A stretch of DNA of 64,000 bases from a virus: the IMG/VR virus record IMGVR_UViG_3300040801_002513, positions 2,318 to 66,317 of that record, one strand, 5' to 3'. Position numbers and translations under genes: made by a program. The notes below the pieces were generated by a model that saw only the letters and a list, made by a program, of their open reading frames with translations, did no database searches and was not told the DNA's origin. This document shows positions 38,037 through 59,051 of the stretch, one piece after another; the stretch's first letter is position 1; the number at the start of each line of letters is the position of its first letter.

Positions 38037-38584
38037 AGTATTTCCTTATGTTCTAATTTTAATTGTTAAGTATATTATACTAGATTTTAGGTAGTTTGTC
38101 AAGTACTTTATTAATTTTAGTTTGTATTTTACTAGGTGGATACGAGTAGTTATAGATGATATGTAATCAAGTAGTAATACTAGTACTGATGTATCATACC
38201 AGAGGAGGAGGGATTGAGTGTAGTTTTCCAGCCCTACATGTACAAAAAGAACGGATCTGTTGTGTACATTAGGACTGGAAGAAAGATATATCATACCGTC
38301 AGTATCGGTTATATCGTTCGTTGAGAGAATTAACATGCCCAGGTCTAACTTTACCATGCGAGAAAAAACCCTATCAAATCCTTTCTCTGTTCTCTCCCAG
38401 GCTAGTCAAGCTAGCTAGTACGGCAGGAACTTAATCCTATCTGGGTGGAAACTATTATTTTACTTAATTCAACTGCCCGCTCCAGGGCATACCCACTTAA
38501 TTTCTTAAGCACCTACATGGGATGGATTACTAGGTAGGTTTAAATCTTAATACAAAATATAATATTAAGGATAGTTGTATACTG

Positions 38585-40328: not shown

Positions 40329-40622
40329 TTAGGCCCCCAAAGTTAAATTTTATCTTTTGCTATACTAGGGTTACTTAATAGTAATGGTCGAAAGAGTAAA
40401 AAATACGATAATTTATAGCGAGTGGTACCCGATCTCTATATAGGGGGTAAATTCGCATTTTTGTTTATTATAGCCCCCTTTGCTGTATTGTTACTCTCTT
40501 AACAGCTAGTGGTACTTCTTAACGAAGTACAAAGAAGAGACATAAAAAGCATGTCTCTTATAGACAAAAACACCGTCTCAACTTCGAGACCCCCCCCCTC
40601 CCCTTCAACTTTGGAGAATATC

Positions 40623-40925
40623 ATGAAATCTACCTACGTATCAGCATCACAAATTCATTGGGGCCACGACCTGTTTCAACTAGAGCCTGTTAGTTTCAAC
40701 GAGGCTCTCGAGGACTACTATGAATCCATGAAGGGTCAGAGGATCAGGGCAAAGGCGTACCGCTTCAACGGTACTGGCCTTGCTGAGAAGTTAAATGAGT
40801 ACTACCCAGAGGAGTTCAGAAGGACCTCTGCAGGTCTGTTACTGGCCTTCGTATATAAAGGCATCCCTATGGATGTCACTGTAGACGGTAGAGGCCAGTA
40901 CTTCAGGCTTTGCGAGGATTATTAA
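40623..40925 (+). CDS. Hypothetical cassette protein
   Basis: Start reassigned to the ATG after GGAG (MKSTYVSASQ). Confidence 0.7.
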   Translation: MKSTYVSASQIHWGHDLFQLEPVSFNEALEDYYESMKGQRIRAKAYRFNGTGLAEKLNEYYPEEFRRTSAGLLLAFVYKGIPMDVTVDGRGQYFRLCEDY

Positions 40926-40931
40926 CCTTTC

Positions 40932-40973
40932 CTGTACCGCTGCCCTTCGGGGTAGTGGTACAGCTTTTTGAAG
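40932..40973 (+). terminator. Representative cassette element: terminator-like hairpin (cUUCGg loop, G-U pairs, CTTTTT) fused to the putative promoter motif
   Basis: CTGTACCGCTGCCC-TTCG-GGGTAGTGGTACAG-CTTTTTGAAG; identical copies at 41365 and 43143. Confidence 0.8.
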
Positions 40974-41024
40974 GAGCAACGGCCATGTGGGTCACCGCTC
41001 CATAACTCCAATCAGGAGATTGTT

Positions 41025-41357
41025 ATGAAAATCGAAATAGTTCAGTCCATTCATGGTATCGACGTTGTTAGCGTAGATGGTGTTAAGTCTTCCAAAGCTG
41101 TAGCCGAGATAGTTCTAGAGGCCGTCAGCCGTATAGAGACAGTTAGAGAGCACGAGGCTAACATAGCGCCACTTACACCCGAGGAGCAGTACGACCCATG
41201 TCAAGGCTGTAATGGCCTTGGCTGTGAGGCCATGTGTGCTGCTGAAGGTGGCGTTCCTGGCTCAGATATGGCCTGGGGCCCTGAAGACGGCAACTGCTGC
41301 CCATGCGGTGGTACCAGCTGTGACGGTACCTGTGGTAACAACAGGCCTCCGTTCTAA
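41025..41357 (+). CDS. Hypothetical protein with Cys/Gly-rich C-terminus
   Basis: ATG after AGGAG; CQGCNGLGC...CCPCGGTSCDGTC. Confidence 0.7.
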   Translation: MKIEIVQSIHGIDVVSVDGVKSSKAVAEIVLEAVSRIETVREHEANIAPLTPEEQYDPCQGCNGLGCEAMCAAEGGVPGSDMAWGPEDGNCCPCGGTSCDGTCGNNRPPF

Positions 41358-41457
41358 GCCTACACTGTACCGCTGCCCTTCGGGGTAGTGGTACAGCTTT
41401 TTGAAGAGGCAACGCCCATTCGGGGCACCGCCTCACCTTCCTACTAAGGAGATCATC

Positions 41458-41712
41458 ATGGCAAATACACAAAGCGACCTTTTTTCCTATTTCTCTGACC
41501 TCTACAAAGAGGTTAATGGCTCTCGCCCTTACGGTGAGTTCTTCTCCAATCTGGATGATTGGGAGATTCAGGATTGGTGTATGCGGTTGGAGTGGCAGCT
41601 CCAAGAGGAGCAAGACCTCTGTGAATGGGCTGAGGCCCACATGGCAGAGGAGGTACGTTGGGACGCCATGCAAGCTGACCCGTCGCCCGACAAGTACGAG
41701 GCTTACTGTTAG
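41458..41712 (+). CDS. Small acidic hypothetical protein
   Basis: AAGGAG RBS; FSDLYKEVNGSRP. Confidence 0.7.
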   Translation: MANTQSDLFSYFSDLYKEVNGSRPYGEFFSNLDDWEIQDWCMRLEWQLQEEQDLCEWAEAHMAEEVRWDAMQADPSPDKYEAYC

Positions 41713-41852
41713 GCCTCACCTGTACTGCTGCCCTTCGGGGTAGTGGTACAGCTTTTTGAAGGAGATACGGCCCAATGCGCAATTCTGTGCATGGATGGGA
41801 GCTACACTGTCTCTATCACTCCACGGCCCCTCATAGGGCAAGGGAGAGCACC

Positions 41853-42155
41853 ATGGCAATATTATCCCTCATCGGTTGTTACCTCGTAGACGACGTTCTT
41901 GTTCCAGCTAAGGCTCAAGAGATAGGCAAAATCAGCTACTTTGTTGACACAGTAGATGATGTACCTAATGTGTCTATCGCAGTACGTAAGCGCCATCAGC
42001 TTACTACAGCCAAAGGCTCCTCTGAACCTGTATCTATAGGTATCCCTACCCGCAAGGGTACACTCTACGCCTATAGGCAGAACGGGTACTACATCGAAGT
42101 TCAGATGAAGAAAATGGTTGCCCATCTAACATTTCAAAAAGAGATGAAGAGGTAA
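41853..42155 (+). CDS. Hypothetical cassette protein
   Basis: GGGAG RBS; bounded by cassette elements. Confidence 0.65.
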   Translation: MAILSLIGCYLVDDVLVPAKAQEIGKISYFVDTVDDVPNVSIAVRKRHQLTTAKGSSEPVSIGIPTRKGTLYAYRQNGYYIEVQMKKMVAHLTFQKEMKR

Positions 42156-42258
42156 CTAATAGCTGTACCAGCTTCCATAGTGGTACAGCTTTTTGAAGGA
42201 GTCAGCAGCTTCGCTGGCTTCGCCCTAAATCCAGAGCCTACGGGCAAAGGAGCTTGTT

Positions 42259-42657
42259 ATGCTGAATATATACGTACGGCTGCCCTATAAAGGCTCCAGC
42301 CGGGTAGAAATGGAGCTGGTAGAATGTCATGGGGGGTTTAGATACTCCATGACATTTGACGTATACACCCAGGCATCACAGCTGTGTGAAATCAGCATCG
42401 CTGCGATGCCTAGAAAGAAGAGCTTCTTGGAATATTGCGAAGGGAGAAGTCCCTTCACAAACAAGGAGACAGCCAAGAGATCGCTGATCTTCTTCCAGGA
42501 GTGTCTGAATTTCTTGGAAGAAGAGTTTTCTGGTTGGATGGGGCATTGCAACCCATCTGATCCAAGGAGGCTTAGGATTTACTCCGCTTACCTCAGTAAA
42601 AGGGGTAAAGAAGGAATCAAAGTCAATGAGTATGGCACATTGACTTGGGAGCTGTAA
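42259..42657 (+). CDS. Hypothetical cassette protein
   Basis: AAGGAG RBS; DPRRLRIYSAYL. Confidence 0.7.
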   Translation: MLNIYVRLPYKGSSRVEMELVECHGGFRYSMTFDVYTQASQLCEISIAAMPRKKSFLEYCEGRSPFTNKETAKRSLIFFQECLNFLEEEFSGWMGHCNPSDPRRLRIYSAYLSKRGKEGIKVNEYGTLTWEL

Positions 42658-42794
42658 GCCTCACTGTACCACTGCCCAGGTTGGGTAGTGGTACAGCTTT
42701 TTGAAGGAGGTAAGGCCCGGCCTGCAATTCAGCAGGTGGTTGGGAGCTACACTGCCTCTTCAACTCCAACGCTTTCGGGCAAAGGAGAGATACC

Positions 42795-43136
42795 ATGGCA
42801 GATCTCAAACTCATCATCGCGGCTACAGCAGCTTTCCCAACAATCGAGTGGTCACATATCGACTGCTCAATGGGGGAAACGTTGGTAATCAGCCATCTGA
42901 TGCCGATGAAATCAGCTGCTGGCTGGTACCTGGGTAGGGCTTGTGTTGAGGTTGATGACCCTCACAGCCCAAATCACATAAACGTAGATTTTGGCTACGG
43001 GCCTTACTCCAGAGAAACGGGGTATTACCCAGATGAGGCCACTCTGCGTAAGGTACACGAGGCAGATATGTTACCTGTGAGAGATTGCGTAGAGAATAAC
43101 GCTCTCTACGACTCGGGTAGACTACCTAAGCCGTAA
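42795..43136 (+). CDS. Conserved hypothetical protein (SAAGWYLG...PYSRETGYY)
   Basis: RBS; motif resembles small proteins of phages/ICEs. Confidence 0.7.
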   Translation: MADLKLIIAATAAFPTIEWSHIDCSMGETLVISHLMPMKSAAGWYLGRACVEVDDPHSPNHINVDFGYGPYSRETGYYPDEATLRKVHEADMLPVRDCVENNALYDSGRLPKP

Positions 43137-43232
43137 ACCTAACTGTACCGCTGCCCTTCGGGGTAGTGGTACAGCTTTTTGAAGGCAGCGCCATATGGGC
43201 TACGCCATTAACCTTTTGTAAGGAGACTCACC

Positions 43233-43553
43233 ATGAAAACTATCATCCACGCAACATTTACAATAGTATGTATACTCATAATAGTATTGGCCACCTTGGT
43301 TATATCCAATATACTGTCTAAGCCTGCTACCGATACTGCTAAGGTTATTCATGATGAGCCTATGTCAGCTTATCACGATATCCTCTGTATAGAGGAAGAC
43401 GGCAGTGCTGAAACCTACAGCATCCCTGTTCCAGTATTCGAGGGATTCAGCGATGAGTTTGTAGAAGACTACCTTGAGTACGCAGGGCAGCAGTTCTGCG
43501 ATAGCATAAAAAACAAGAGCCGGTACCTTCACGATGTAGGTGAAGACCGATAA
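43233..43553 (+). CDS. Membrane-anchored hypothetical protein
   Basis: N-terminal TM segment. Confidence 0.7.
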   Translation: MKTIIHATFTIVCILIIVLATLVISNILSKPATDTAKVIHDEPMSAYHDILCIEEDGSAETYSIPVPVFEGFSDEFVEDYLEYAGQQFCDSIKNKSRYLHDVGEDR

Positions 43554-43656
43554 CCCATCTGTACCATTACTCCTGTGTGAGTAGTGGTACAGCTTTTTGA
43601 AGGCAATGCTCGTGTAGAAGCAGCGCCTCACTTTAACTCCAACTAAGGAGAATATC

Positions 43657-43923
43657 ATGAGAAATATAGACAAAGTAGAGTTGAAATGCGCGTTAGATGC
43701 AATTTTAACAAAAAATAGGGAGATGTATCGAGCTGCTTGGCAGGAGAGCACCTCAGACGAACTGAGGAAGCAGTACAGCTCATGGTGCAGAGCTAAAGAG
43801 GAAGAAATCGCCTCGACGTTAGAGGATTTTGCCATCTATACCGAAAGGGTTAGCCTCGGGGGGCTTACCCCTCAAGTATTAATTGAGGGCAAGTCGATGT
43901 ACCTAACAAAATTGTTTTATTAG
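43657..43923 (+). CDS. Hypothetical protein, paralog of 48182-48445
   Basis: MRNIDKVEL vs MRNTDKVEL, with near-identical flanks. Confidence 0.8.
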   Translation: MRNIDKVELKCALDAILTKNREMYRAAWQESTSDELRKQYSSWCRAKEEEIASTLEDFAIYTERVSLGGLTPQVLIEGKSMYLTKLFY

Positions 43924-44319
43924 TTGCCGGCAAGGCAATTTCCATAGCACATTCGCACCACACCTGGCTTAGGCTAGGTGTGGTGCTTTCTTTTTTAAAA
44001 GCGCCCTGGGACTTCGTAAAGGAGTTCTTGAGTAACACAGTAGACCAAATAGCAGTACAGCTTTTTGAAGTAATACCGCTTCAGTTTTGCCCCGACTAGA
44101 GGGGATTGCGAGGTACTCATGAAAGTACACACAGTTTTTACAGCGAAGAATAACCTCATCACCCAAATTGTCGCTGAGGGAAACCCTGGCGTGCTGACTC
44201 TCCTTTGTCCCCACATACGATTCATTTCTCAAACTTTAATCAAAAAACTACTGCAGATAGTGGTACAACTTTTTGAACGGGCACAGCCATAAGGCAAAGC
44301 CCACAATAGGAGATATACT

Positions 44320-44466
44320 ATGGAATGTGTTATATGCGGCAAAATCAACTGTGAAGAAAACCCTGGGTGTGAGGCAGCTAGCTCTCTGCTGGAGGACATC
44401 TACATGGATGAGTACTGTTGCTATACTTGCGGTCAAGAGTTTGATGACTGCACTTGCGAAGAATAA
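44320..44466 (+). CDS. 48-aa Cys-rich acidic miniprotein
   Basis: AGGAG RBS; MECVICGKINCEENPGCEAASSLLEDIYMDEYCCYTCGQEFDDCTCEE; fills a cassette exactly. Confidence 0.65.
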   Translation: MECVICGKINCEENPGCEAASSLLEDIYMDEYCCYTCGQEFDDCTCEE

Positions 44467-44568
44467 CCTTTACTGTACCATTGCCCAAGTTGGGTAGTGG
44501 TACAGTTTATTGAAGGAGCAATGCCCATATGGGGCGCCGCTCTATAACTCCATATAAGGAGATTTACC

Positions 44569-44871
44569 ATGACTAAGCTTACTCTTGACCCAGCCATCAT
44601 CGCCGCTTTCTCAGCTCACAGTATTGAGTTGGAACACCGCCCTGAGCTCAACGAGGGTCGCGGCCTATGGCAATACGATGACGGCCCTGACGGGGCAATC
44701 ATTGAATTGTGGGTTGGCATCAATGGTACCGGTAATGTAGGTGTATTCGGCACCTATGATGCTGGTGATTTTGGCCAACAGTACGGCCTGTCTAGCAACA
44801 TGTCAGATTGGATAGAGAACTTCGCTCAATATCTGCCATTCATGGCCAAAGGTGAAGAATTCGATTGGTAA
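44569..44871 (+). CDS. Acidic hypothetical cassette protein
   Basis: AAGGAG RBS; bounded by cassette elements. Confidence 0.7.
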   Translation: MTKLTLDPAIIAAFSAHSIELEHRPELNEGRGLWQYDDGPDGAIIELWVGINGTGNVGVFGTYDAGDFGQQYGLSSNMSDWIENFAQYLPFMAKGEEFDW

Positions 44872-44961
44872 CCCTTACGCTGTACCAGCTTCCTTAGTGG
44901 TACAGCTTTTTGAAGGCATAGCTCACAAAGAGCAGCGCCATAACTCCAATGGAGAGATATC

Positions 44962-45294
44962 ATGTCCAATACACAGATTTTTACAATAGCAGTAATGTCA
45001 GCAGCTAATGAAGTACGTGGTGCTGAAAAGAAAAGTGTTAAATACTTCTTAGGTGAACTGGTAGAAATTGGATGTTCATTCACCAGATGTACAGACACAT
45101 ATTGTATAAGACTTTCTAGCTTCTTCAATAGTGAGGAAGAGGTGCAAAAAACTGAACTTATACCCCATATCGTGGTTGAACAAGGGCCATTAGTAATAGG
45201 TAAGGGTATTAAGTACTACCCATCAAAGAGCTGTATATCGCCTATCAACCAATGGGCCTTAGAAAAAAGGTTCAACAAGCGTATAAAGAAATAA
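44962..45294 (+). CDS. Hypothetical cassette protein
   Basis: GGAG RBS; bounded by cassette elements. Confidence 0.7.
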   Translation: MSNTQIFTIAVMSAANEVRGAEKKSVKYFLGELVEIGCSFTRCTDTYCIRLSSFFNSEEEVQKTELIPHIVVEQGPLVIGKGIKYYPSKSCISPINQWALEKRFNKRIKK

Positions 45295-45394
45295 CCCATT
45301 ACACTGTACCAGCTTCCATAGTGGTACAGGGTTTTGAAGGAGCTTACATATCGTTGGCTCTAAAATCCAACGCCTACGGGCAAAGGAGTCTGTT

Positions 45395-45889
45395 ATGATC
45401 ACCATTAAACTCACCGGCCACTTACACGTTGGTAGTGCTACTGAGACCTCTTCTGATTGTGGTAACTGTGACGGTGCACGTTGCGAGGAATGCCACAAGC
45501 GTTGGGTCTTCGAGGGTACTACCTACTACAGTTACGAGGCTGCTTTGGAAGCAGAGGCTAAAAGCCTTTCTGCTTGGCAGGACCTAGTACCTGGTGTAGA
45601 GATGCCTTCTGACCCACAATTCGCCCTCAATGCTGATGGAGAGTTAACAGCTCTCTGTTGGAGTTGGGAAGAGGGGGACCATCTGGTAGTTTGTAACCCA
45701 GATGCTCCAGCATACGAAGCAGTGTATGCTAAGGCCCTCAAAGCTACTGAGTTGTGGGTGAAATGTCCTTGTGTTGATAAAGCAGACCATTGCTACGCCA
45801 ATGACTGTAGTATCATGGGATGCAATGACACACGCTGTCAATATGAGGTAAAACACCGTGGGCGTAAGGAGCGCAAATGGTACATGTAG
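45395..45889 (+). CDS. Cys-rich hypothetical protein
   Basis: DCGNCDGARCEEC and CPC...HC...C...C...C. Confidence 0.7.
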   Translation: MITIKLTGHLHVGSATETSSDCGNCDGARCEECHKRWVFEGTTYYSYEAALEAEAKSLSAWQDLVPGVEMPSDPQFALNADGELTALCWSWEEGDHLVVCNPDAPAYEAVYAKALKATELWVKCPCVDKADHCYANDCSIMGCNDTRCQYEVKHRGRKERKWYM

Positions 45890-45982
45890 TACAAAGACAG
45901 GGCCAGCTTGTATAGTGGTCCTGTTTTTTGAAGGGCAAAGGCATAAGGCCACAGCCCATAACTCCAAATAAGGAGAATCACC

Positions 45983-46195
45983 ATGCGTAACCACAGCACC
46001 GATGTGCTGGCTAATAAAATCAATAGCGATTACGCTAATGCTGGTATTACACCAGAAGAACTTATTGAAGCTACTGAAGGCGCCTTTGATATCACTATCA
46101 GAGAAGACTACCTGGCCTTTCACATTGTAGAAGACAGCACCGTATATACTATATACATGTGGCGTAAAAACAACTACTGGAATGTGAAGGCATAA
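45983..46195 (+). CDS. Hypothetical protein
   Basis: AAGGAG RBS. Confidence 0.65.
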   Translation: MRNHSTDVLANKINSDYANAGITPEELIEATEGAFDITIREDYLAFHIVEDSTVYTIYMWRKNNYWNVKA

Positions 46196-46213
46196 CATTA
46201 AAGGAGATTAGTC

Positions 46214-46414
46214 ATGGCAAAACACACTGTTGTTAGCAAAGCTGTAGCAGAAAAGATTTGTAGTAATGAAGGCCTCATCCTTAGCGATGTTGTTAAAGAA
46301 GCACAGCTCCTTAAAAGCGGTGCTAAGCTTAAATATCGCAAGCCTAGGTATTACATAGCTGGTTACGCCGAATCAGGTATTGATGTAGAAACCACACTCT
46401 CGAATGTAGTATAA
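46214..46414 (+). CDS. Hypothetical protein
   Basis: AAGGAG RBS. Confidence 0.65.
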   Translation: MAKHTVVSKAVAEKICSNEGLILSDVVKEAQLLKSGAKLKYRKPRYYIAGYAESGIDVETTLSNVV

Positions 46415-46511
46415 TATCCACTGTACCACTGCCCAAGTTGGGTAGTGGTACATTGTTTTGAAGCAGCGCCATATGGGCAACGCTCACCCTAACCTCCAAT
46501 TGGAGATTGTT

Positions 46512-46799
46512 ATGAAAACAGTGCGCTTTTGTAATACCTGCAGCTCAACTGAGCTAACGAGAATGGAAGTAGATGGGTTCTTCTCCTCAACAGTATGTGT
46601 TACTTGCGGGAGTGCTGATATTGCCTCCCGTGAAGAGCCTGAATGGTTTGACCTATCTAACTGGTCAGACCTGCCAAAGGGCTTGACTATAAATTCTCAA
46701 GGGTTTGTGGAAGACCCTTGGGGTAATGAGCTATTCAAACTACGTAAAGGCGATACTGTCTATTCTGTGACAGACCGTCTTAACTCAGATATGGAATAG
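46512..46799 (+). CDS. Zn-ribbon hypothetical protein
   Basis: FCNTC...CVTCGS; ATG after GGAG. Confidence 0.65.
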   Translation: MKTVRFCNTCSSTELTRMEVDGFFSSTVCVTCGSADIASREEPEWFDLSNWSDLPKGLTINSQGFVEDPWGNELFKLRKGDTVYSVTDRLNSDME

Positions 46800-46899
46800 C
46801 CTCTTCTGTACCATTGTCTAGTTTAGGCAGTGGTACAGCTTTTTGAAGGAGCAGCGCCATATAGGCATCGCTCTATAACTCCAGCTAAGGAGAATCACA

Positions 46900-48072
46900 A
46901 TGTCTTTATCTACAATTGAAGTGGAAGGCGGCAAAGTTGTTGTCAAAATTGGAGAATCTGACCCTTATATTATTGACTATAGGCCTAAATTCTCCCTACT
47001 TGAGGTGGTAAGTAAGTTCTGCCCAGCAACTGTACGTTTGTTCGACAAACACAGCATGTACAAAGATGCTGGCGATATGCTTGGTGTATCTGTAAAAATG
47101 TTTACCAAGATGCTCAATGGTGCCATGCACAGAGCTTATATCGCACCACACTATGACCTTATAAAAAGATTTGGATACTTCAAAGGATTCCTTAATGGAG
47201 ACTTAGTACAAAAGGTAAGGATGAACCGTAAGTATATAGAGAACTTCATAGCAGATAACTGTAGCAATACAGCTGCTTTCGGCCTCTTATATGACAGCCC
47301 CAAAGAGGCTAAAACCAAACTTGGTAAAGGTTTGTGGAAAAAACTGTGTAATAATAGCGCTACAAGAAATGATAACATAGTTAAATTAGTTATCCTTTCT
47401 TGTCAGTATGAGACAGATGATATAGCATTTGCTCAAACCATACCATCTACACTATTACTGTTGAAAGACATCATGTTTCTCCACGATTTAAACAGCACAA
47501 TAATGCAGGACTTTGTAAAGAGTGTAAAAAAGCCGTTGTATAAGGTAGAAGAATCTCATATAACAAAGTTGCGTAGTACCTGGTATGACTGTAAAAGACT
47601 TATGGAAAATGAAGGTCTAGAGTTTAATCCTAACTGGAGTATCAAACGTGTCACAGAAGAACATGACGCTGCTATTACCAGAAACAATAGGAAAAAATAC
47701 TCAGATGAAGAGTTCGACTACTGCAACCAGCTGCCTAATACCGTAACTAAGGGCGATTTCACTGCGACCTTAGTTCGTACACCCCTCGCACTATACACAA
47801 TTGGTGTGAGAGAACACCACTGTGTTGCTATGTACAGTGGTTTGTGTAAATCTGGGCAATACATAGTGTATGAGATAACAGGCCTAACTACGGAAGTTAG
47901 TATACTAGGCTTTGGGGGTGATAACCACACTCAGCACTACCATGCGTGCAATGAGTTAGTAACCAATCCCAACCTTAAAGACTTCGGAATATACGTAGAA
48001 AAGCATATAAGGTCAGTATTCACCTTTAAAGAACTTAGTACCTTTTATGCCGGACCGGTTATAGACCTATAA
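46900..48072 (+). CDS. PcfJ-like domain protein
   Basis: C-terminal WSIKRVTEEHD...GVREHHCVAMY. Confidence 0.65.
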   Translation: MSLSTIEVEGGKVVVKIGESDPYIIDYRPKFSLLEVVSKFCPATVRLFDKHSMYKDAGDMLGVSVKMFTKMLNGAMHRAYIAPHYDLIKRFGYFKGFLNGDLVQKVRMNRKYIENFIADNCSNTAAFGLLYDSPKEAKTKLGKGLWKKLCNNSATRNDNIVKLVILSCQYETDDIAFAQTIPSTLLLLKDIMFLHDLNSTIMQDFVKSVKKPLYKVEESHITKLRSTWYDCKRLMENEGLEFNPNWSIKRVTEEHDAAITRNNRKKYSDEEFDYCNQLPNTVTKGDFTATLVRTPLALYTIGVREHHCVAMYSGLCKSGQYIVYEITGLTTEVSILGFGGDNHTQHYHACNELVTNPNLKDFGIYVEKHIRSVFTFKELSTFYAGPVIDL

Positions 48073-48181
48073 GCTGTTGAAAACTGTACCATTACTCCTG
48101 TGTGAGTAGTGGTACAGTTTTTTGAAGGCAATGCTCATGTAGAAGCAGCGCCTCACTTTAACTCCAGCTAAGGAAAATATC

Positions 48182-48445
48182 ATGAGAAATACAGACAAAG
48201 TAGAACTGCGCACAAAATTGGACTCAGTTTTAACTGAAAACAGAGACCGTTATATAGTCTCTTGGAAAAACAGCCCATCTGCCGCACTCAGACAGCAGTA
48301 CAGAAAGTGGTGCATAGCTCAGGAGAAGGAAGTTGCCTCTACCTTAGAAGAATTCGGTATTACTACCGATAGAGTTAGCCTCAGCGGACTTTACCCACAA
48401 GTATTAATTGCTGACAAGGCGATTTCCCTAGCACAATTGATGTAG
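48182..48445 (+). CDS. Hypothetical protein, paralog of 43657-43923
   Basis: Duplicated cassette. Confidence 0.8.
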   Translation: MRNTDKVELRTKLDSVLTENRDRYIVSWKNSPSAALRQQYRKWCIAQEKEVASTLEEFGITTDRVSLSGLYPQVLIADKAISLAQLM

Positions 48446-48843
48446 CACATTCGCACCACACCTGGCTTAGGCTAGGTGTGGTGCTATCTTTATTAAAAGC
48501 GCCCTGTATTTTCATATGTAAGTACAGGGTATTACAAAGGCTAACAGTACCAATTACCTTCACAGGTTATACGCTAGTGGTACAACCTCTTGAAGTTAAA
48601 CAATCAACTTAGGAGGTACAGGTGTTCCAGCTAAAAAACAACAACTCCGCAATTCTATTAACAACCTACAGCAGCACAAACACGGCTTTACGGGGGACGA
48701 GACCCTGCCGCCCATCAGCTCTTATGCCGTCTCATGCTTTTCATTTCTGCACTTAATAGTGGTACAACTTTTTGAAGGAGCACAATGGGTGCTTCGCAGT
48801 ACAATCACGGCCCACTTCCGGGCAAAGATTTAAGGAGAATACC

Positions 48844-49455
48844 ATGAATTTAGCTATCGTTATCGGAAACCTAGGTGAAACCCCAGTAGTTCGTAAAACT
48901 GCCGCTGGTATGTCAGTTACTACATTCTCTCTGGCCACCACTGAGCGTTGGAAAAAGGACGGGGTTAAGCAGGAGAAAACCACTTGGCACAAGATTCAGG
49001 CCTGGGGTACTAACGCAGATAATTGCGCCGCGTACCTGTCCAAAGGATCAAAGCTGCAGGTCACTGGCCGTATGGAAATCCAGCCTTGGACTGACCAGCA
49101 AGGTATTAAGAGAAATCCCACCATCATCGTGATGAGTGAGATGGAGATGTTAGGCGATCCTGGACATAGGAACGAGTCTAACAATAGTACTCCTGCTCAA
49201 AATACTGCGACAACCAACTCTGCTTGTAAATTCACCTATAAGCAGATGAAAGACGGTGGTTGGACCGATGAGCAACTACTGGCTGACCCCCAGTATGCGC
49301 ACTTGGTACCGAAGAAAGCCGCACCTCCTGCCCCACCAAAACCTCCTGTGGCGCAAAACAATCCGCCATCTCCACCCACACCTATATCTGTGGCACCTCC
49401 TCAGGGTTGTGCCAGTTCTCAGGGTTTCGTGCCTGACGAGGACTATGGAGTGTAA
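48844..49455 (+). CDS. ssb: Single-stranded DNA-binding protein with Pro-rich tail
   Basis: MNLAIVIGNLGETP...FSLAT...TTWHKIQAWG..A...YLSKGSKLQVTGR. Confidence 0.9.
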   Translation: MNLAIVIGNLGETPVVRKTAAGMSVTTFSLATTERWKKDGVKQEKTTWHKIQAWGTNADNCAAYLSKGSKLQVTGRMEIQPWTDQQGIKRNPTIIVMSEMEMLGDPGHRNESNNSTPAQNTATTNSACKFTYKQMKDGGWTDEQLLADPQYAHLVPKKAAPPAPPKPPVAQNNPPSPPTPISVAPPQGCASSQGFVPDEDYGV

Positions 49456-49553
49456 CATTAACTCAGTACCCGCTTGTATAGGGGTACTGATTTTTTGAAG
49501 TCAACTGTAGTATTACTCAAATCAAAGCCTAATAAAGGGCAAAGGAGATTACA

Positions 49554-50126
49554 ATGCATTATGACATCAAAAATCATTCTATCGTAGTTAGCACATTCGA
49601 AGGTAAAATAGTGACCTTAGATCTGCATCACTACAATGAGATCAAACTCAGTTATGACAAAAAAGTTGGTAAAGTTATTATGGATTTAGTGGAACCTGTA
49701 AAATCTAGGTTCATTATGGATATGTATCCAGAAGTTCCTAAGAAAGAAGTACCTGTAATGCCTACAGCTAAAACTGTAAAAGAACCTACAACTGGTGAAC
49801 GTTGTAAAATAATGCCACAACCAACTAAAAAAAGAACAATCAGTAGACGTGCTACTACTACATATTCTAAACCGATGAAGAAAATGTCGGTACAAAGTAT
49901 AAGTACACTATACCTACTGTACAAAAAAGGAGAACCTGTACAAAAACTATCCAGAAAATACGATATAAAAGTAAACACAATATACAGTTGGGTATCCACT
50001 ATAACTCGTGTACTATCTGGAGCACCTGTAGAAAAAGTGCATAAAAAACTGCAGCAAACAGCGGTCTATATAAAAAGCCAGGGGCTATCTGAAGGGTGTA
50101 CGGTGAAACACTCCCAGGCCGCCTAA
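49554..50126 (+). CDS. HTH DNA-binding protein
   Basis: KGEPVQKLSRKYDIKVNTIYSWV. Confidence 0.6.
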   Translation: MHYDIKNHSIVVSTFEGKIVTLDLHHYNEIKLSYDKKVGKVIMDLVEPVKSRFIMDMYPEVPKKEVPVMPTAKTVKEPTTGERCKIMPQPTKKRTISRRATTTYSKPMKKMSVQSISTLYLLYKKGEPVQKLSRKYDIKVNTIYSWVSTITRVLSGAPVEKVHKKLQQTAVYIKSQGLSEGCTVKHSQAA

Positions 50127-50223
50127 ACAAATACAGTACCATTGCACTTCGGTGTAGTGGTACTGTTTTTTGAAGCAATGCTGCTTTACAATTCAGCGCT
50201 CATTTTGAGCAAAGGAGAACACA

Positions 50224-50484
50224 ATGTCAAAACTCATTAACTTTACCTGCGAAGAATGTGAGAAAACAGGACTAACAGAAGCTGATGGACTTGAAATGGA
50301 GTCAGGTTTTGTATGCACCGATTGCCTGTACGCCACTTCTACACCGGTTACAGAAGACTATTTGGAAGACCCCACACAAGAGGGCCATGATACTGAATCT
50401 AGAGTATCGTATACAGTACTTACAACGATAGTAACTGTGCTCATGTACTTCAGCACTTTAATCATTAAACATTGGAGAAAATAA
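50224..50484 (+). CDS. Zn-finger + C-terminal TM small protein
   Basis: CEEC...CTDC; hydrophobic C-terminus. Confidence 0.6.
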   Translation: MSKLINFTCEECEKTGLTEADGLEMESGFVCTDCLYATSTPVTEDYLEDPTQEGHDTESRVSYTVLTTIVTVLMYFSTLIIKHWRK

Positions 50485-50933
50485 TGATTACAGAAATTAA
50501 AAAAGATATATTATCTGATATAGACCCAGAACAGCCTACTGTAATTATCCATGGCTGTAACTGTTTCCATACAATGGGTACTGGTGTGGCTAAAAGCCTA
50601 AAAGAAGCCTACCCACAGGTATACAAAGCTGACGTAGCGTACAAGCCTAAAGGAGACAAAAGAAAGTTGGGTCTCCATAGTATGGCAAAAATAAACGATA
50701 ACCTTTATGTGCTCAATTGCTATACTCAATACAGATATGGCAAAGAAGGTGTATTTGCAGACTACGAAGCAATAGAGAAATGCCTGAAGTATATAGGCAA
50801 AAATCTATCACCTCTCTACACAATCCGCACCAGCAAAATAGGTTGCGGTAATGCAGGAGGAGATTGGAAGAAAGTCAAAGCTTTGATAAAGACACACCTG
50901 TCAAAGTTTGACGTATATGTATATTACATTTAA
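50484..50933 (+). CDS. Macrodomain (Appr-1-p/DarG-like ADP-ribosylhydrolase)
   Basis: IIHGCNCFHTMGTGVA...NCYTQY...KIGCGNAGGDW. Confidence 0.85.
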   Translation: MITEIKKDILSDIDPEQPTVIIHGCNCFHTMGTGVAKSLKEAYPQVYKADVAYKPKGDKRKLGLHSMAKINDNLYVLNCYTQYRYGKEGVFADYEAIEKCLKYIGKNLSPLYTIRTSKIGCGNAGGDWKKVKALIKTHLSKFDVYVYYI

Positions 50934-50962
50934 TTAAACGTCCTCGGACAAAGGAAAGCAAC

Positions 50963-51187
50963 ATGGACTGGCAAAAACCTAATATTAAAAGGCTTGTAGC
51001 TAAAACTCAAATCGCTGCTAACAAACAAGTTGCAGAAGAACGCCTCATTGAAATGCAGTCAGAACCAAAATATGTCTACGGATATATGATAGGCTTCGAT
51101 ATGGACAATGAGTACTCCGTAGTAGGAATGTACGACTACGGTAACGCTCCAGCAGGAGACCATAAAGAAGTTTTCGTTTGCACATAA
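50963..51187 (+). CDS. Hypothetical protein
   Basis: AAGGA RBS. Confidence 0.6.
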   Translation: MDWQKPNIKRLVAKTQIAANKQVAEERLIEMQSEPKYVYGYMIGFDMDNEYSVVGMYDYGNAPAGDHKEVFVCT

Positions 51188-51223
51188 ATTCAAAGCCCTC
51201 GAAAGGGGGCAAAGGAGCACACC

Positions 51224-51472
51224 ATGGCACTTACATGTCTTAACTGTGGAAATGCAGGAGTACTTTGTAACTGTACTGATGAAAGCGAGATGTATGAAGA
51301 TGTTGAAACATTTCACATTTACATATGGCCCGATGATACCTGGGTACTGGCTGAAGACTACGATGAACAAGAATACAGCTTCATGTCAGATGACTTTGCT
51401 ATCGAAGAACTCGGCGGCGACTGGACCGAGGAAGATATTGAAACCTTTGTAATCAATTTCAACAAAAGATAA
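51224..51472 (+). CDS. Small acidic Cys-containing protein
   Basis: AAGGAG RBS; very acidic. Confidence 0.65.
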   Translation: MALTCLNCGNAGVLCNCTDESEMYEDVETFHIYIWPDDTWVLAEDYDEQEYSFMSDDFAIEELGGDWTEEDIETFVINFNKR

Positions 51473-51476
51473 CTCC

Positions 51477-51905
51477 ATGGATATAATGGAAGCTTTACTC
51501 TGGCTGTGCCTTAATATATACCACGAGGCACGGTCAGATGACAGATTGGGGCAATTAGCAGTTGCTCATGTGACACTGAATAGAGCTGAGTTACGGGGCC
51601 TCACAGTAAGAGAGGTCGTCCTACAGCCCGCACAATTTAGTTGGGTTGACAAAGTAGACATCATGCCTAAAGAGCACAATACAATGCTAGAAATTGCCAA
51701 CGTAGCTAAAACAGCATTTAGTGGTAAGGATATTACGGGAGGAGCAACACATTACCATCATGTGTCAATCCAACCACATTGGGCCGATAAGATGGAATAC
51801 ATAACCACATTCGGCTCACACAAGTTTTACAAGAAGTACAAAGTAAAAGTATTAACCGCAGGTAATTTCAAATCAAAGCCTAACAAGGCAAGGAGAAAAT
51901 CATGA
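51477..51905 (+). CDS. Cell wall hydrolase (SleB/Hydrolase_2 family)
   Basis: LNIYHEAR...VAHVTLNR...QFSW...DITGGATHYH...HKFY. Confidence 0.85.
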   Translation: MDIMEALLWLCLNIYHEARSDDRLGQLAVAHVTLNRAELRGLTVREVVLQPAQFSWVDKVDIMPKEHNTMLEIANVAKTAFSGKDITGGATHYHHVSIQPHWADKMEYITTFGSHKFYKKYKVKVLTAGNFKSKPNKARRKS

Positions 51906-52063
51906 TCTATAAAATTATCAATGGTGTTGTATGTAGACCAACTTCCCAACAAGAAGCAATCCTAAAATCTCGAATTAGAAAAGAATACAACAAATATCCA
52001 ACAGAGCAAAAACGAGTAAGAGCTGATGAAAAAATAGCACCACCAAAAGTAGCTTACTGCTAG
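51902..52063 (+). CDS. 53-aa hypothetical protein
   Basis: AAGGAG RBS; MIYKIINGVVCRPTSQ. Confidence 0.5.
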   Translation: MIYKIINGVVCRPTSQQEAILKSRIRKEYNKYPTEQKRVRADEKIAPPKVAYC

Positions 52064-52412
52064 CACTATTAATACAACCACCTCTGATAACTTAGGGGTG
52101 GTGGTATTATTTTTTGAAGTAATAAAGCTTCACAGCCACTTTTGGCATAGGAGAATTCACTTATGGGCATTATACCTAAACCTATTTGTTCATTTCCAAC
52201 AGAATACAAAGTGATAATACCGCAAAAGTTTAACCAAATCTGGAACCCTGGGAATATATAGCGCTTTTGTCCCCGCATACGATTCATTTCTCCAATTTAA
52301 AGCAAATACTAATAACACAAACTCAAAGACAGCGCCACAAACAGTAGTGGTACTGTTTTTTGAAGCAATGCTGCTTTACAATTCAGCGCTCATTTGAGCA
52401 AGGGGACTCATC

Positions 52413-52616
52413 ATGGAAACAAACAGTAGAGACATTGTACCAACAGAAATAGAAATTAAGCTGCAAAAATACGATTGGCTGAAAGTAGAAGAAAAGGAGG
52501 AGAAAGCAGAAGTACTAACGATAGGCTGTACAAATGGCATGATTACAGTAGCAAAAGGACAAATTATGGATTTCTTAAACTTGATCGAATGCCCATTGTA
52601 TGAACTGATACCTTAA
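52413..52616 (+). CDS. Hypothetical protein
   Basis: Follows a cassette leader. Confidence 0.6.
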   Translation: METNSRDIVPTEIEIKLQKYDWLKVEEKEEKAEVLTIGCTNGMITVAKGQIMDFLNLIECPLYELIP

Positions 52617-52634
52617 CAAAACGGGGGAGAGAAA

Positions 52635-52859
52635 ATGAAAGTCTTAAACCTATTATTAGTATTAACATTCTTATCACTAATGTTCTACATGTGTACTACA
52701 ACAATAGAACGCTACAAACAAGAAAAAGAAATCCCAATACAACCAATAACAGAAGACGAATGCTGGGCAAAAGGAGGACATTGGATATTCAACGGAGATA
52801 TGGACCAATATGGTACTGACCAAAGTAGTTTTACATGCGTAATAATAGAGGAAGAATAA
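52635..52859 (+). CDS. Small membrane-anchored protein
   Basis: TM segment + ECWAKGGHW. Confidence 0.6.
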   Translation: MKVLNLLLVLTFLSLMFYMCTTTIERYKQEKEIPIQPITEDECWAKGGHWIFNGDMDQYGTDQSSFTCVIIEEE

Positions 52860-52860
52860 A

Positions 52861-53037
52861 ATGATTACAAAAGACACTAAGAAAACACTACGACGACGAA
52901 TAACAGATAAACTATGCAAAGACGAGAAATTTCTAAATGAAATGATTGGTGCTGCAATAGAAATAGGAGGTATAAAACACACAGACATACTAAACACAAA
53001 AGACATAAGAAAAATATTAGGCTTACCAACAATATGA
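52861..53037 (+). CDS. 58-aa hypothetical protein
   Basis: GAGG RBS; MITKDTKKTLRRR. Confidence 0.45.
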   Translation: MITKDTKKTLRRRITDKLCKDEKFLNEMIGAAIEIGGIKHTDILNTKDIRKILGLPTI

Positions 53038-53233
53038 ATTATAAGACTGCCTCAGTGCATAACACTGGGGTGGTCTTTCAGCATTTAAAAGCCCCTGTCA
53101 CTCCGAGCGATAGTCAGTGGTAATGTCTTGCGTCTGATTGGGGATGGGGATGGGGAATGGGGTAGTAGTGGTACTATTTTTTGAAGTTAATCGCAGTCAA
53201 ATAAGTAGTACAACCTAACTAAAGGAGAACACC

Positions 53234-53698
53234 ATGAACAACGCAAAAACAGCTAACAAGGTAATAAAAACAGCACTAATGGCTGCCACACTGTTGATGA
53301 CAACAACCCTGCCATACTCAAACGCACTTGCCGCTGAAGGACTTTCATATGAGAGGATAGAATGCTTCTTCTATGACACACCTATAGAACTAGCAGTAAT
53401 GATGCCAGCAACCTTCACACAAGAACAAAGAGAGGTAGAATCAGCACGAGTATGTAACTCTATCAAACTCACTAGAATGAACAGGGCTACCCTATTAACC
53501 ACAGATGCCGTTTGTGATACAGACATGAACTGTGAGTACTGGGATAGATACCACAAAAATGGCATAGAAAAAATATTTGTTGCATATGATGATGATGTAA
53601 CAAGAACACTTGTAGTAATGTGTAAAGACATCTTTGAACTTCAATTCACTGATGACCCGAGCGAGCTTAAAACAATTTGTGAAGAAGCAAAGAAATAA
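53234..53698 (+). CDS. Secreted hypothetical protein
   Basis: Signal peptide ending ALA. Confidence 0.65.
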   Translation: MNNAKTANKVIKTALMAATLLMTTTLPYSNALAAEGLSYERIECFFYDTPIELAVMMPATFTQEQREVESARVCNSIKLTRMNRATLLTTDAVCDTDMNCEYWDRYHKNGIEKIFVAYDDDVTRTLVVMCKDIFELQFTDDPSELKTICEEAKK

Positions 53699-53735
53699 TC
53701 ATGAACCCAACAACCAAATAAACAAAGGAGCTAAC

Positions 53736-54260
53736 ATGAAGAACATTATCTTATTAATAATTGCCATAGTACTTGGAATCTCAACAACCGTAGCAGCTGC
53801 GCCAAAATACTATGGAGGCCCAGCACCTACACTGATTGAACTGTATGACATCACAGAAGACGGCATCAGGCTTAAATTCAAAAACGATAGCGCATTCTAT
53901 GACTACACAAAAAGAGCCTACGGTGAAGAAGTAATAGCAGAAATCACCAAACTGGCAGAAGAAGGATTCGGTTTATACCAATACCTACTTACACTAAAAG
54001 AACAGAGAAAAGACGCACTAAGAAACCTTGACAACCTGTGTGGAGATGTATGGTGCGAAGGACCTTACGACTATAGCTTTCAAAATATTAAATGTAGCTA
54101 TGGAAAATGCACACTATACTATACAGAACTCTCCGAACCACCAAAAACTGGAGTATGTATAATCAATGGAGCCACACTAGAAGATTTTGATGATGACATG
54201 CAAGATGGGGAAGTAATAGCAAACCAAATATTTGATTACTTCTACGGATTAAGATTTTAA
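53736..54260 (+). CDS. Secreted Cys-containing protein
   Basis: MKNIILLIIAIVLG signal; LDNLCGDVWCEGPYDY. Confidence 0.65.
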   Translation: MKNIILLIIAIVLGISTTVAAAPKYYGGPAPTLIELYDITEDGIRLKFKNDSAFYDYTKRAYGEEVIAEITKLAEEGFGLYQYLLTLKEQRKDALRNLDNLCGDVWCEGPYDYSFQNIKCSYGKCTLYYTELSEPPKTGVCIINGATLEDFDDDMQDGEVIANQIFDYFYGLRF

Positions 54261-54273
54261 TAACGAGGTAAAT

Positions 54274-54627
54274 ATGCTAAACAGAAGAGACCTGATAAAA
54301 GCTGCAACAGCATCTCTAATGATAAACACTGGATTAATAACAACGTTTGTCAAAATGCTGCCAGCAGAAGAAGCTAAACATCCACAAAAGGGCAAACTTG
54401 TCTATAAAAACTATGGATATGATAACCCTAAAACTGGGGTATGCTGCTACGCCTATAATACTGTAGGTTTCAGCGTACACTTTAAATCTGGTATTAAACG
54501 CTATTGGTATGCTAGATCGGTATTTGGAGATGATAACATAAACGAGTTAATCAGACGTGCAGAATCAAAGCATGGACTAAACTCCTATATTAATCATCTT
54601 CGTACATGGCCGCGACCTACAAAGTAA
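54274..54627 (+). CDS. Tat-signal protein with KTSC-like C-terminus
   Basis: MLNRRDLIKAA twin-arginine motif; VHFKSG..YWY...GLNSYIN. Confidence 0.55.
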   Translation: MLNRRDLIKAATASLMINTGLITTFVKMLPAEEAKHPQKGKLVYKNYGYDNPKTGVCCYAYNTVGFSVHFKSGIKRYWYARSVFGDDNINELIRRAESKHGLNSYINHLRTWPRPTK

Positions 54628-54723
54628 AATAAACAAAAAACTGGTACTGCTACCCCATAACAAGGGGTAGTGGTACAAATTTTTTGAAGATAATTAAGAT
54701 TAAAATTTAATTGGAGGCAAACC

Positions 54724-55503
54724 ATGGTAAAACTATGGACAGCTCAGTACCGATATCCTGGACCATACAGATTGGATATCACCGTAAAAGGTCAAGACCC
54801 AATAGGTAAATTATTTGCACCTACTTGGGACATGGTAAACAAGTATAAACAAAACCATAATGAAGAAGAGTACATGGACTTGTACAAAGGTATGATGTAC
54901 GATAGTCAGCTTCACAACCCACAAATATGGAACGACTTACTCCGCCGTGACTATCTAGTTCTAGTTTGCTTCTGTAAATATGGAAACTTCTGCCATAGAC
55001 ACCTACTGGTAGCCGAACTAATTAAGAAAGGCGTTGCTTACCACGGTGAAATAGTAGACTTCACGCAATGGGAAAAGAAACCTGACTCAATAACAAGTTT
55101 CAAAGGCGCCTACAGTTGGTTGTCTAATTTCTACCCAACTCCAATAACTTATCAAAATATCACATATGCTAGCGTAGAACACATGTATCAAGCATGGAAA
55201 CGTCCGGCAGAAGATAGAGCAGCCTACGCAACTATTGACAAGCCTAAAAATGCAGCTAAAGGATTAAATCCAGCAGGCTGGCACACAGGTATAAAGCAAG
55301 CAATAATGTTAGAAGCATTAAAGCTTAAATTCCAACACCGTGATCTAAGAGAAAAACTTTTAGCAACAAAAGATATAGAATTAATAGAAGGTAACCAATG
55401 GCATGATAACTACTGGGGAAACTGTACATGTTACAAATGTATAACAATCCATGGTGAAAACATGCTAGGCAAAATGCTAATGAAACTAAGGGACACACTA
55501 TGA
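54724..55503 (+). CDS. DUF488-like domain fused to NADAR (YbiA/DarG1-like) domain
   Basis: FAPTWDM...LVCFC...FCHRHLL; then WLSNFY...SVEHMYQA...LLAT...EGNQWHDNYWG...GENMLGKMLM. Confidence 0.8.
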   Translation: MVKLWTAQYRYPGPYRLDITVKGQDPIGKLFAPTWDMVNKYKQNHNEEEYMDLYKGMMYDSQLHNPQIWNDLLRRDYLVLVCFCKYGNFCHRHLLVAELIKKGVAYHGEIVDFTQWEKKPDSITSFKGAYSWLSNFYPTPITYQNITYASVEHMYQAWKRPAEDRAAYATIDKPKNAAKGLNPAGWHTGIKQAIMLEALKLKFQHRDLREKLLATKDIELIEGNQWHDNYWGNCTCYKCITIHGENMLGKMLMKLRDTL

Positions 55504-55617
55504 GCACCGACAAAAAGGTCACAACCATAATAATCATCGTAAATGGAAATAAATCCTAGATGGGAGGCCAACAACACATGCTTCTCAAAAACTCTACAAA
55601 ACAGCGGAGATATTAAA

Positions 55618-56166: not shown

Positions 56167-56263
56167 AATCATTAATAAACACAAAGACCGCTACCAACAA
56201 TGGGGGTAGTGGTCCGGGTGTTTGAGGCCCGTTAATAAGAAATCTTTACTACAGGAGAAACAC

Positions 56264-57796: not shown

Positions 57797-57926
57797 AACC
57801 TTAACAAATCCTACATCGGGGAGTGGGGAGTAGTGGTACTGCTCCTTGATGGAGGTTAGAAAACAATCTACCTTATTTTACAGCCTCTCTTTGGGGCATT
57901 TACTAAAGTTAAAAGGAGAATTACCA

Positions 57927-58889: not shown

Positions 58890-59051
58890 CCAACTAACAT
58901 CCTCATCTCTACTAATAAAAATGGGGATGGGGATGGGGATGGGGAATAGTGGTACTGCTTTGTGAATAAAAAATTAGCTAGAATGTATCTGGCTTAGATG
59001 TAAAAACAAACACGCCTAAAATGGGCAAAAAACAACACAAGGAGATTTAAA

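Follow-up and report, generated by a model that had tools for sequence, protein, structure and literature searches.

What does an RNA hairpin do when it recurs, with varying sequence, in front of one small phage gene after another? The question is raised by a 64,000-nucleotide stretch of viral DNA (hereafter the window), bases 2318-66317 of the 66,317-base IMG/VR record IMGVR_UViG_3300040801_002513, which has a CheckV completeness of 25% and is a fragment of an uncultivated jumbo phage. A first-pass annotation of this DNA had noted, in the 5′ leaders of at least 11 cassettes, a stem-loop with a 3x3 internal loop (stem / 3 nt / stem / loop / stem / 3 nt / stem), here designated class I, and had proposed for it a protein-binding site, a put/nut-like antitermination signal, an RNase processing site or a 5′ stabiliser. 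We find that the repeats are genuine RNA hairpins, conserved and placed where early-gene messages begin. Most likely, they protect the 5′ ends of these messages as one part of a repeated terminator-promoter-leader cassette and do not form a new type of regulatory switch; their function is probably an ordinary one.

Hairpins at the start of the leaders

The 11 hairpins all occur where they had been described, on the + strand, and their reported location right after a GAAG sequence was borne out, in that the start of each falls 2-4 nt into the GAAG at the end of a conserved motif (see below). The architecture attributed to all of them held in part: RNAfold returned the exact 3x3 structure as the minimum free energy (MFE) fold for six, starting at 40973, 41406, 44279, 44915, 45933, and 46462, and the others are variants, with a 2x2 internal loop in 43602, 44515, and 48127, an isolated pair inside the loop in 46848, and a competing fold in 43184. 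Their z-scores range from -0.86 to -3.89. Along the + strand, the hairpins are at 40973-41001 (5 bp/3x3/4 bp, 5-nt loop; MFE -13.7, z -2.11; 44.9 bits with the covariance model R1, below), 41406-41434 (z -3.86; R1 41.9 bits), 43184-43206 (3/3x3/3, with the MFE favoring the competing fold; z -1.20), 43602-43627 (2x2 variant, 8-nt loop; z -1.80), 44279-44302 (4/3x3/3, 4-nt loop, after a motif ending in GAAC; z -3.81; non-seed R1 match, E 0.021), 44515-44543 (folding as the 2x2 variant; z -2.39), 44915-44939 (3/3x3/4; z -3.89), 45933-45957 (4/3x3/3; z -3.09; non-seed R1 match, E 0.2), 46462-46484 (3/3x3/3, starting inside GAAG; z -0.86), 46848-46874 (5/3x3/3; z -2.38), and 48127-48152 (z -1.87). 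The last is a duplicate of that at 43602, and both stand ahead of copies of a duplicated small gene (43657-43923 and 48182-48445) that are each followed by the same terminator with a 14-bp stem (43955-43986 and 48453-48484), unlike the cassette hairpin.

To gauge how frequent this form is, we applied a strict descriptor that requires a 3x3 loop between stems of ≥3 bp each, 4-8 nt in the hairpin loop, and a start ≤6 nt from the first G; it fits 12 of the 24 window cassettes, as compared to 1.53 ± 1.15 in 300 dinucleotide shuffles (maximum 6); with ≥7 bp required, it fits 9/24 vs. 0.88 ± 0.81. The descriptor is also satisfied by 11.3% of 5000 random window positions, and one of the cassettes that fit, at 42198, has a plain hairpin that can also be parsed this way.

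Of 17 class I candidates, 12 served as seeds for the covariance model R1, and five were left out because MAFFT had misaligned their 3′ halves. In 170.7 kb, comprising the window and related loci, R1 produced 17 matches at E ≤1, all on the + strand; five are non-seed matches (44275, 45930, and L160:5414, plus the doubtful 26617 and 50194). In the corresponding model-fitted alignment, 99.2% of the cells pair, vs. 90.4% in shuffles (0/500), and pairing falls to 36-49% when the partners are slid; four of the nine pairs are changed on both sides (9/500 shuffles), with a covariation score of 0.225 vs. 0.105 (0/500). The compensatory changes noticed at first pass are thus present, with a covariation above that of shuffles on this alignment, yet modest. 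The accompanying statement that structure is conserved while sequence is not was correct only in part: among the 11 window copies, changes on both sides occur at 4/9 pair positions, but the three pairs flanking the internal loop (the two that close the lower stem and the one that opens the upper stem) are invariant, and so is the first A of the 5′ strand of this loop. The loop is also unpaired in the orthologue from the IMG/VR relative G002, whose portal protein is 72% identical to that of the window.

A search of the whole window against Rfam 15 at the gathering threshold retrieved a sole match, to the EGFOA family at 38322-38450, and nothing above noise appeared on any leader hairpin when positions 36000-60000 were searched at E up to 10, in agreement with the expectation that no described family would be found. 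Likewise, keyword searches of open-access text found no earlier description of the motif. The idea of an undescribed RNA motif acting in cis therefore stands as far as a leader structure on the sense strand, without an Rfam match, is concerned, but not as a stand-alone motif, as becomes clear from the relatives.

Regular-expression searches of 11 related phage contigs gave 123 raw matches to the cassette, of which 79 were kept (core with ≤1 mismatch, ≥4 T among the last six bases, next bases GA); the 44 dropped were mostly chance matches in coding regions, and a start codon could be assigned in 75 of the 79. The first predicted hairpin starts ≤4 nt from the G that follows the T-run in 70/79 cassettes, most often with an offset of 0 (26 cassettes), 3 (28), or 4 nt (10). 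This offset, combined with a ΔG ≤-7 kcal/mol for the first 36 nt, is found in 71% of the cassettes vs. 11.5% of shuffles and 9.8% of random 36-mers starting with GA. At least three hairpin types are interchangeable at this site: the type varies, the position does not.

Class II hairpins have a helix of nine positions and a 5-nt loop (45339-45361; also 42198-42221 and 48777-48795, + strand). We aligned 18 of 19 class II leaders picked by eye, leaving out one that spans two loci, using MAFFT and without fitting to the structure. Of the cells in this alignment, 91.3% pair, compared to 76.0% in shuffles (0/500) and 27-45% in slid controls; in 10/17 pairs both sides have changed (2/500), covariation scores 0.494 vs. 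0.209 (0/500), and within the 5′ helix seven of the nine pairs covary. Class III hairpins begin at the first G after the T-run (50172-50187; also 52362-52377, 52116-52131, and 44067-44082, + strand). From them we selected by eye 12 leaders sharing one 16-nt geometry, with other loop lengths left out; in their gapless alignment 55/55 cells pair, with covariation between positions +3, +4, and +5, which lie inside GAAG, and the bases opposite them. Both classes covary more strongly than class I. Classes I and II share a 5-nt loop that begins with AU and is closed by a C-G pair, and G-U pairs are common in the helices of both.

A second model, R2, made from whole class II leaders, also scores the class I leaders at 40970, 44512, 46845, 41403, and 45930, as well as a ~60-nt 5′ domain in two long leaders (41758-41817 and 42703-42761, + strand); 28 of its 29 matches are on the + strand. 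Taken together with the G-U pairs, the strand preference of the R1 and R2 matches indicates an RNA structure on the sense strand. At E ≤0.01, R2 matches 8/35 related records (10 matches in G002, seven in G003, one in G005, and two in G008, with four records matched weakly), whereas R1 matches 1/35. Class I copies number 11 in the window, two in G002, and 3-5 in the metagenome locus L160. Judged from the R2 scores of class I leaders and the narrow reach of R1, class I is a lineage-restricted variant of one wider leader family. The leader class is kept between orthologues of the window and G002 (40970 corresponds to L091:6586, and 45336 to L091:7338).

The motif and its flanking elements

The motif preceding the hairpins is 21 nt long (TAGTGGTACNGNTTTTT plus GAAG); a 19-nt form of it, also ending in GAAG, has 22 copies in the window at ≤3 mismatches, all on the + strand, vs. 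0.05 expected; at ≤4 substitutions, 24 cassettes are recovered. These 24 copies form an array before small genes (40953-58967, + strand), and there are none on the - strand gene block. The copy of the first class I cassette, TAGTGGTACAGCTTTTT plus GAAG, is at 40953-40973, and those of the remaining ones are at 41386-41406, 43164-43184, 43582-43602, 44258-44278, 44495-44515, 44895-44915, 45913-45933, 46443-46463, 46828-46848, and 48107-48127; weaker copies occur at 49479-49500, 54668-54689, and 56207-56227, and, ahead of the gene that opens the + strand block, a variant at ~40507. This variant, which lacks the T-run, is conserved in relatives (window 40507-40625; L160:1671; L091:~6154; L119:85), as is the long leader of the gene, with a C-rich tract just ahead of the Shine-Dalgarno (SD) sequence.

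In the form TAGTGGTACNGN followed by T5-6, the motif overlaps the 3′ arm and the U-tract of a terminator-like hairpin; in the first cassette (40932-40963, + strand), its first half serves as the 3′ arm and the T-run comes next. More such hairpins are at 41365-41396, 41720-41751, 42664-42696, 43143-43174, 43559-43592, 46422-46452, 46806-46838, and 50133-50166. There are 28 terminator-like sites in the window vs. 10.1 ± 3.0 in shuffles, and the cassette hairpins dominate among them; their 3′ arm is invariant and their 5′ arm adapts to it through G-U pairs.

We infer that the motif, which overlaps the terminator before it, is a phage-specific promoter and that transcription begins at the G. This reading is based on its being kept in cassettes without the 5′ arm (44052, 48759, 53168, and 58949), after ordinary terminators (43955 and 48453), and before the first gene of the block, always on the + strand. 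Additionally, sigma-70-like sites are not enriched in the window (30 vs. 28.0 ± 5.5 in shuffles) and none is tied to a cassette, relatives of the phage encode an RNA polymerase (RNAP), and a review, in its section on RNAP-encoding jumbo phages, reports conserved phage-specific motifs upstream of early genes (PMC7598289). We also considered two bacterial promoter types and discarded them: a sigma-54-like reading of TGGTAC-N-TTGA has a GG-to-GC spacing off by one and lacks the -12 GC, and a Bacteroidetes-type -33/-7 reading has no conserved second element.

The polymerase in question is a single open reading frame (ORF) of 1109 aa in G029 (L097/L238; G029:C1:~45-46.4 kb) and of 1180 aa in G025 (L096/L239; G025:C1:~114-115.7 kb), each matching domains of RNAP beta (Rpb2_6) as well as beta′ (Rpb1_2), suggestive of a two-barrel polymerase in fused form. 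Two giant open frames of 7674 and 3325 aa show weak Rpb1_2 matches (E 0.002-0.004). A T7-type RNAP (PF00940) had no match in the window record and five large relatives, a result of little weight as the control was also without a match.

With 5 or 6 T, the motif occurs in G002 (six copies at ≤3 mismatches), G003 (nine), and G005 (one, at a contig end), and it is multi-copy in at least six metagenome loci (L160 with L130, L179, L131, L119, L138, and L152). Conversely, matches are at chance level in distant relatives, including the 100%-complete G029, whose 70-120 kb region, searched for an equivalent cassette, contained solely 15-nt tandem repeats in coding sequence. An exact-motif scan of IMG/VR with the 5-T form gave two single matches, both inside ORFs and judged to be due to chance. 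In G008, a more distant relative (L240), GTAGTG plus a T-run is directly followed by a small hairpin with a UUCG loop in three copies (G008:C1:209864, 211875, and 228636), one of them preceded by GGTAGT repeats. Some cassettes in the window have G-quadruplex-like GGGGAT/GGGGAG repeats just upstream of the motif (53140-53167, 57815-57832, and 58920-58948, + strand), and such runs are also found at L091:~14000 and in L131, L130, and G003; the cassettes concerned have a degenerate T-run and no terminator arm, and may constitute a second promoter subclass.

A last element lies next to the SD sequence. In 10 of the 11 class I leaders, a CUCC (or CCUU) pairs with the SD in a small hairpin: anti-SD CUCC with SD GGAG at 41002-41023, and equivalent hairpins at 41438-41451, 43212-43223, 43637-43650, 44548-44561, 44944-44954, 45962-45975, 46494-46505, 46879-46892, and 48163-48174 (+ strand). 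In other leaders this hairpin itself contains a 3x3 loop (anti-SD / 3 nt / stem-loop / AAA / SD), as at 45366-45387, 41819-41846, 42230-42251, 42764-42787, and 48803-48830 (+ strand). Overall, anti-SD and SD close a 3x3 loop around a strongly covarying stem-loop in 43/75 leaders, vs. 8.8 ± 2.7 in 200 shuffles (maximum 18), and the 3x3 plan therefore occurs in two places of the leader.

Candidate roles of the 5′ hairpin

Stabilising hairpins at the 5′ end of messages are exemplified by the leaders of ompA, papA, aprE, and T7 gene 10. Among the four functions put forward at first pass, 5′ stabilisation provides the best anatomical fit, and we give about an even chance to the class I hairpin being a protective stem-loop at the 5′ end of transcripts that start at the G. 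We favor this role because the hairpin, whatever its type, is fixed within 4 nt of the presumed start, and because 5′-terminal base pairing is known to hinder 5′-end-dependent decay, as described for the cases treated in PMC3997798; the stabilising effect itself is deduced from this placement.

We propose that each gene of the + strand array would be preceded by one composite cassette of five parts: a terminator-like hairpin; the motif TAGTGGTACNGN plus T5-6, which would act as a phage-specific promoter; a stable hairpin 0-4 nt after the first G (GAAG), the 3x3 structure being one of its forms; a short A-rich spacer; and a weak helix between the SD GGAG and an anti-SD, (U)CC/CUCC, with the start codon after it. 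If transcripts start at the G, the hairpin would lie at their extreme 5′ end and would hinder 5′-end-dependent decay of the RppH/RNase E or RNase J type, while the upstream terminator hairpin would protect the 3′ end of the preceding message. Each gene would seem to form a monocistronic unit in which a terminator and a phage-specific promoter overlap, the 5′ end is structured, and the ribosome-binding site is partly masked.

Several observations weigh against this proposal. A search of sequencing runs located the stretch in three DNA runs from one study, with no RNA run listed, so that the G is a presumed start and the motif a putative promoter. The RNAP ORF was not found in the window record, G002, or G003, all of them fragments, and is known from distant, near-complete relatives. 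In 9/12 class III leaders, the helix could be extended by a pair between the base past it and the final T of the run, and its boundary is consequently no proof of a start at the G. Five or six window cassettes with weaker motifs (49497, 53183, 54686, 56224, and 58964) have no stable 5′-proximal hairpin, and a class-I-like hairpin at L160:5414-5441 lies in a long leader, ~150 nt downstream of the nearest motif. The covariation of class I, although real, is modest, and its copies are paralogues; those at 43602 and 48127, being duplicates before duplicated genes, show that the 11 copies are not independent. Finally, opposed positions of the internal loop are able to pair in only 5/33 instances among the window copies, and a pure stabiliser needs no internal loop. 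This preserved, A-rich 3x3 loop is the sole feature of class I that goes beyond known stabilisers.

The loop is also what an operator for a phage or host RNA-binding protein (a translational repressor or activator, an RNA chaperone, or an endonuclease) would offer, the protein recognising a shape composed of two short G+C stems, an A-rich 3x3 loop, and a hairpin loop starting with AU. Invariance of the three flanking pairs and of the first loop A, the unpaired state of the internal loop, also in the G002 orthologue, the stem/3 nt/stem-loop/3 nt/stem plan found around the SD as well (43/75 leaders), the AU-initial loop closed by C-G in classes I and II, and the cold-shock-domain protein encoded by the phage (32496-32714, - strand) would all suit such an operator. 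Nevertheless, we consider it unlikely: three architectures occupy one position and a single specific binder would not recognise all of them, and the invariance of the flanking pairs may reflect the recent common descent of paralogous cassettes. Somewhat more doubtful is that the 3x3 module, at both the 5′ end and the SD, is a common operator of a phage post-transcriptional regulator or of the two-barrel RNAP; if so, it would be part of a new RNA-protein regulatory system of this jumbo-phage clade, in which the early regulon is switched in a RegA/RegB-like manner, by structure recognition.

We are just as doubtful of a processing site, at which an RNase E-like or phage nuclease would cut a long polycistronic RNA in the U-rich, unpaired GAAG stretch, leaving the two hairpins to cap the new 3′ and 5′ ends. 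Most cassettes do have such a U-rich single-stranded segment between two hairpins, and the leader hairpin would remain a protector of the 5′ end. However, the conserved TAGTGGTAC part, which a simple structural cleavage site does not need, is kept without the upstream hairpin, after independent terminators, and before the first gene. RNase III substrates have a helix of ~20 bp, about two helical turns, and the RNase processing site suggested at first pass, taken as an RNase III site, fits poorly with helices of 6-9 bp, far below that size, with a terminator after every gene, and with one copy per gene.

It is improbable that the hairpin has little RNA function of its own, as a passenger of a recombining cassette or as a DNA or initial-transcription part of the promoter. 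Such a passenger is what one could expect of a ~100 bp repeated cassette that flanks small ORFs without family matches, as in the T4-type cassettes outlined in PMC2839356, with class I confined to three contigs, expanded in the phage of the window, and carried in duplicated gene-plus-cassette units at 43.6 kb and 48.1 kb. Against it, the compensatory changes and the G-U pairs show selection on RNA pairing in the sense strand, and orthologues have retained their leader class at a portal identity of 72%. Two further readings of the hairpin were rejected: upstream ORFs from an ATG in the hairpin loops, since several loops have no ATG and the frames are inconsistent, and a K-turn, since there are no tandem G-A pairs. 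The put/nut-like signal of the first-pass annotation, by which polymerase would be modified to read through downstream terminators, is very improbable despite the promoter-proximal position of the hairpin in phage early transcripts and the many terminator-like hairpins downstream, as there is one copy per gene and not per operon, with a terminator after each and no boxA-like conserved partner, the loops begin with AU or AC (two of them of 8 nt) and are not GNRA-like pentaloops, the stems are broken by the 3x3 loop, and the whole is far smaller than the two-stem put RNA and is without an Rfam match.

The phage, its relatives, and known systems

The genes of the window are on the - strand up to ~40.3 kb, including those for the terminase, portal, major head protein, PhoH, ClpP, and a cold-shock-domain protein, and a + strand block of mostly small ORFs starts at ~40.5 kb and continues with SSB, macro-domain, NADAR, and DprA-like genes. 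The ORFs downstream of the cassettes are mostly small, and the few scanned had no Pfam or PHROG match. A DNA similarity search against 50,697 phage records gave no match to the window. By contrast with searches for related loci that used the PcfJ-like protein or PhoH as a single query, which retrieved no loci, an alignment of the portal was successful: 735 homologues were found at E ≤1e-10 (8000 candidates scored) on contigs of up to ~311 kb, and 262 of 282 candidate IMG/VR stretches encode a relative. From these counts, the clade is one of widespread, uncultivated jumbo phages.

Other features of these genomes are a large terminase ORF of 1421 aa with intein-splicing and LAGLIDADG domains (23925-28190, - strand), a dNMP-kinase ORF with a LAGLIDADG/endonuclease part (30662-32083, - strand), the cold-shock-domain protein mentioned above (E 9e-16), and a ClpP protease (33555-34124, - strand; E 4e-70). 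The EGFOA match (RF02955; 38322-38450, - strand; 42.1 bits vs. a gathering score of 37.7) sits between the two divergent gene blocks and places this family in a jumbo-phage genome; EGFOA RNAs form trimers or strand-exchanged dimers according to a 2026 preprint (bioRxiv 10.64898/2026.07.01.735769). The 15-nt repeats of G029 form long arrays within coding sequence in three places (G029:C1:~96-100 kb, - strand; L235-L237) and probably encode pentapeptide-repeat structural proteins.

Among known 5′ stabilisers, the leaders resemble hp1 of ompA, papA, B. subtilis aprE, and T7 gene 10 in having a stable hairpin a few nucleotides from the presumed 5′ end, and the ompA 5′ untranslated region in having a second element beside the ribosome-binding site. 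They differ in having one hairpin per gene across an array, with several interchangeable architectures, and in the 3x3 internal loop that class I keeps, for which we know of no role in stabilisers. Hairpins in phage early transcripts are also found in lambda nut boxB, HK022 put, and T7 RNase III sites. An operon contains a single nut or put element, characterised by specific loops or two long stems, with lambda nut combining a 5-bp stem and a GNRA-like pentaloop with a conserved boxA, and the T7 RNase III sites include internal loops. Unlike all of these, the window has one hairpin per gene, of 6-9 bp and with AU-initial loops.

The putative promoter is similar to the early promoters of phiKZ and AR9, as far as these are covered in PMC7598289, in being a phage-specific motif, recognised bioinformatically before early genes; more distant relatives of the phage of the window encode a multisubunit-type RNAP of their own. 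There, the motifs are ~10 nt long, AT-rich, and near -10, whereas that of the window is a G+C-containing 9-mer plus a T-run and overlaps a terminator; additionally, the RNAP of the clade is a single ORF with beta and beta′ domains. If the motif is the promoter of the fused beta/beta′ polymerase, it would give this enzyme a defined template.

As a whole, the cassette would work like the PeSL (promoter-early stem-loop) cassettes of T4-type phages, by analogy with the accounts of these elements in PMC2839356 and PMC4122927. As described there, a PeSL is a repeated intergenic composite of ~100 bp that joins a terminator stem-loop, an early promoter, and the SD and start of the next gene; it is found beside small orphan genes, where the early region is plastic, with duplicated gene-plus-cassette units. 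The window cassette is laid out in a similar way, with terminator stem-loops supported by predicted structure (28 sites vs. 10.1 ± 3.0), mostly small ORFs behind it, and one duplicated gene-plus-cassette pair. Compared with the same accounts, the window cassette lacks the strong sigma-70-like -35/-10 promoter with its AT-rich upstream region, having TAGTGGTACNGN plus a T-run instead, and its stem-loop is upstream of the motif and overlaps it, whereas that of PeSLs is between or over the -35/-10 boxes; its promoter and terminator roles are predicted ones. The cassette offers a testable map of early expression in an uncultivated clade of ~260-310 kb genomes with hundreds of metagenomic relatives, and such compact, insulated terminator-promoter-leader modules could serve expression engineering. 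What the window cassette adds to the PeSL plan is a set of covarying RNA structures in the leader.

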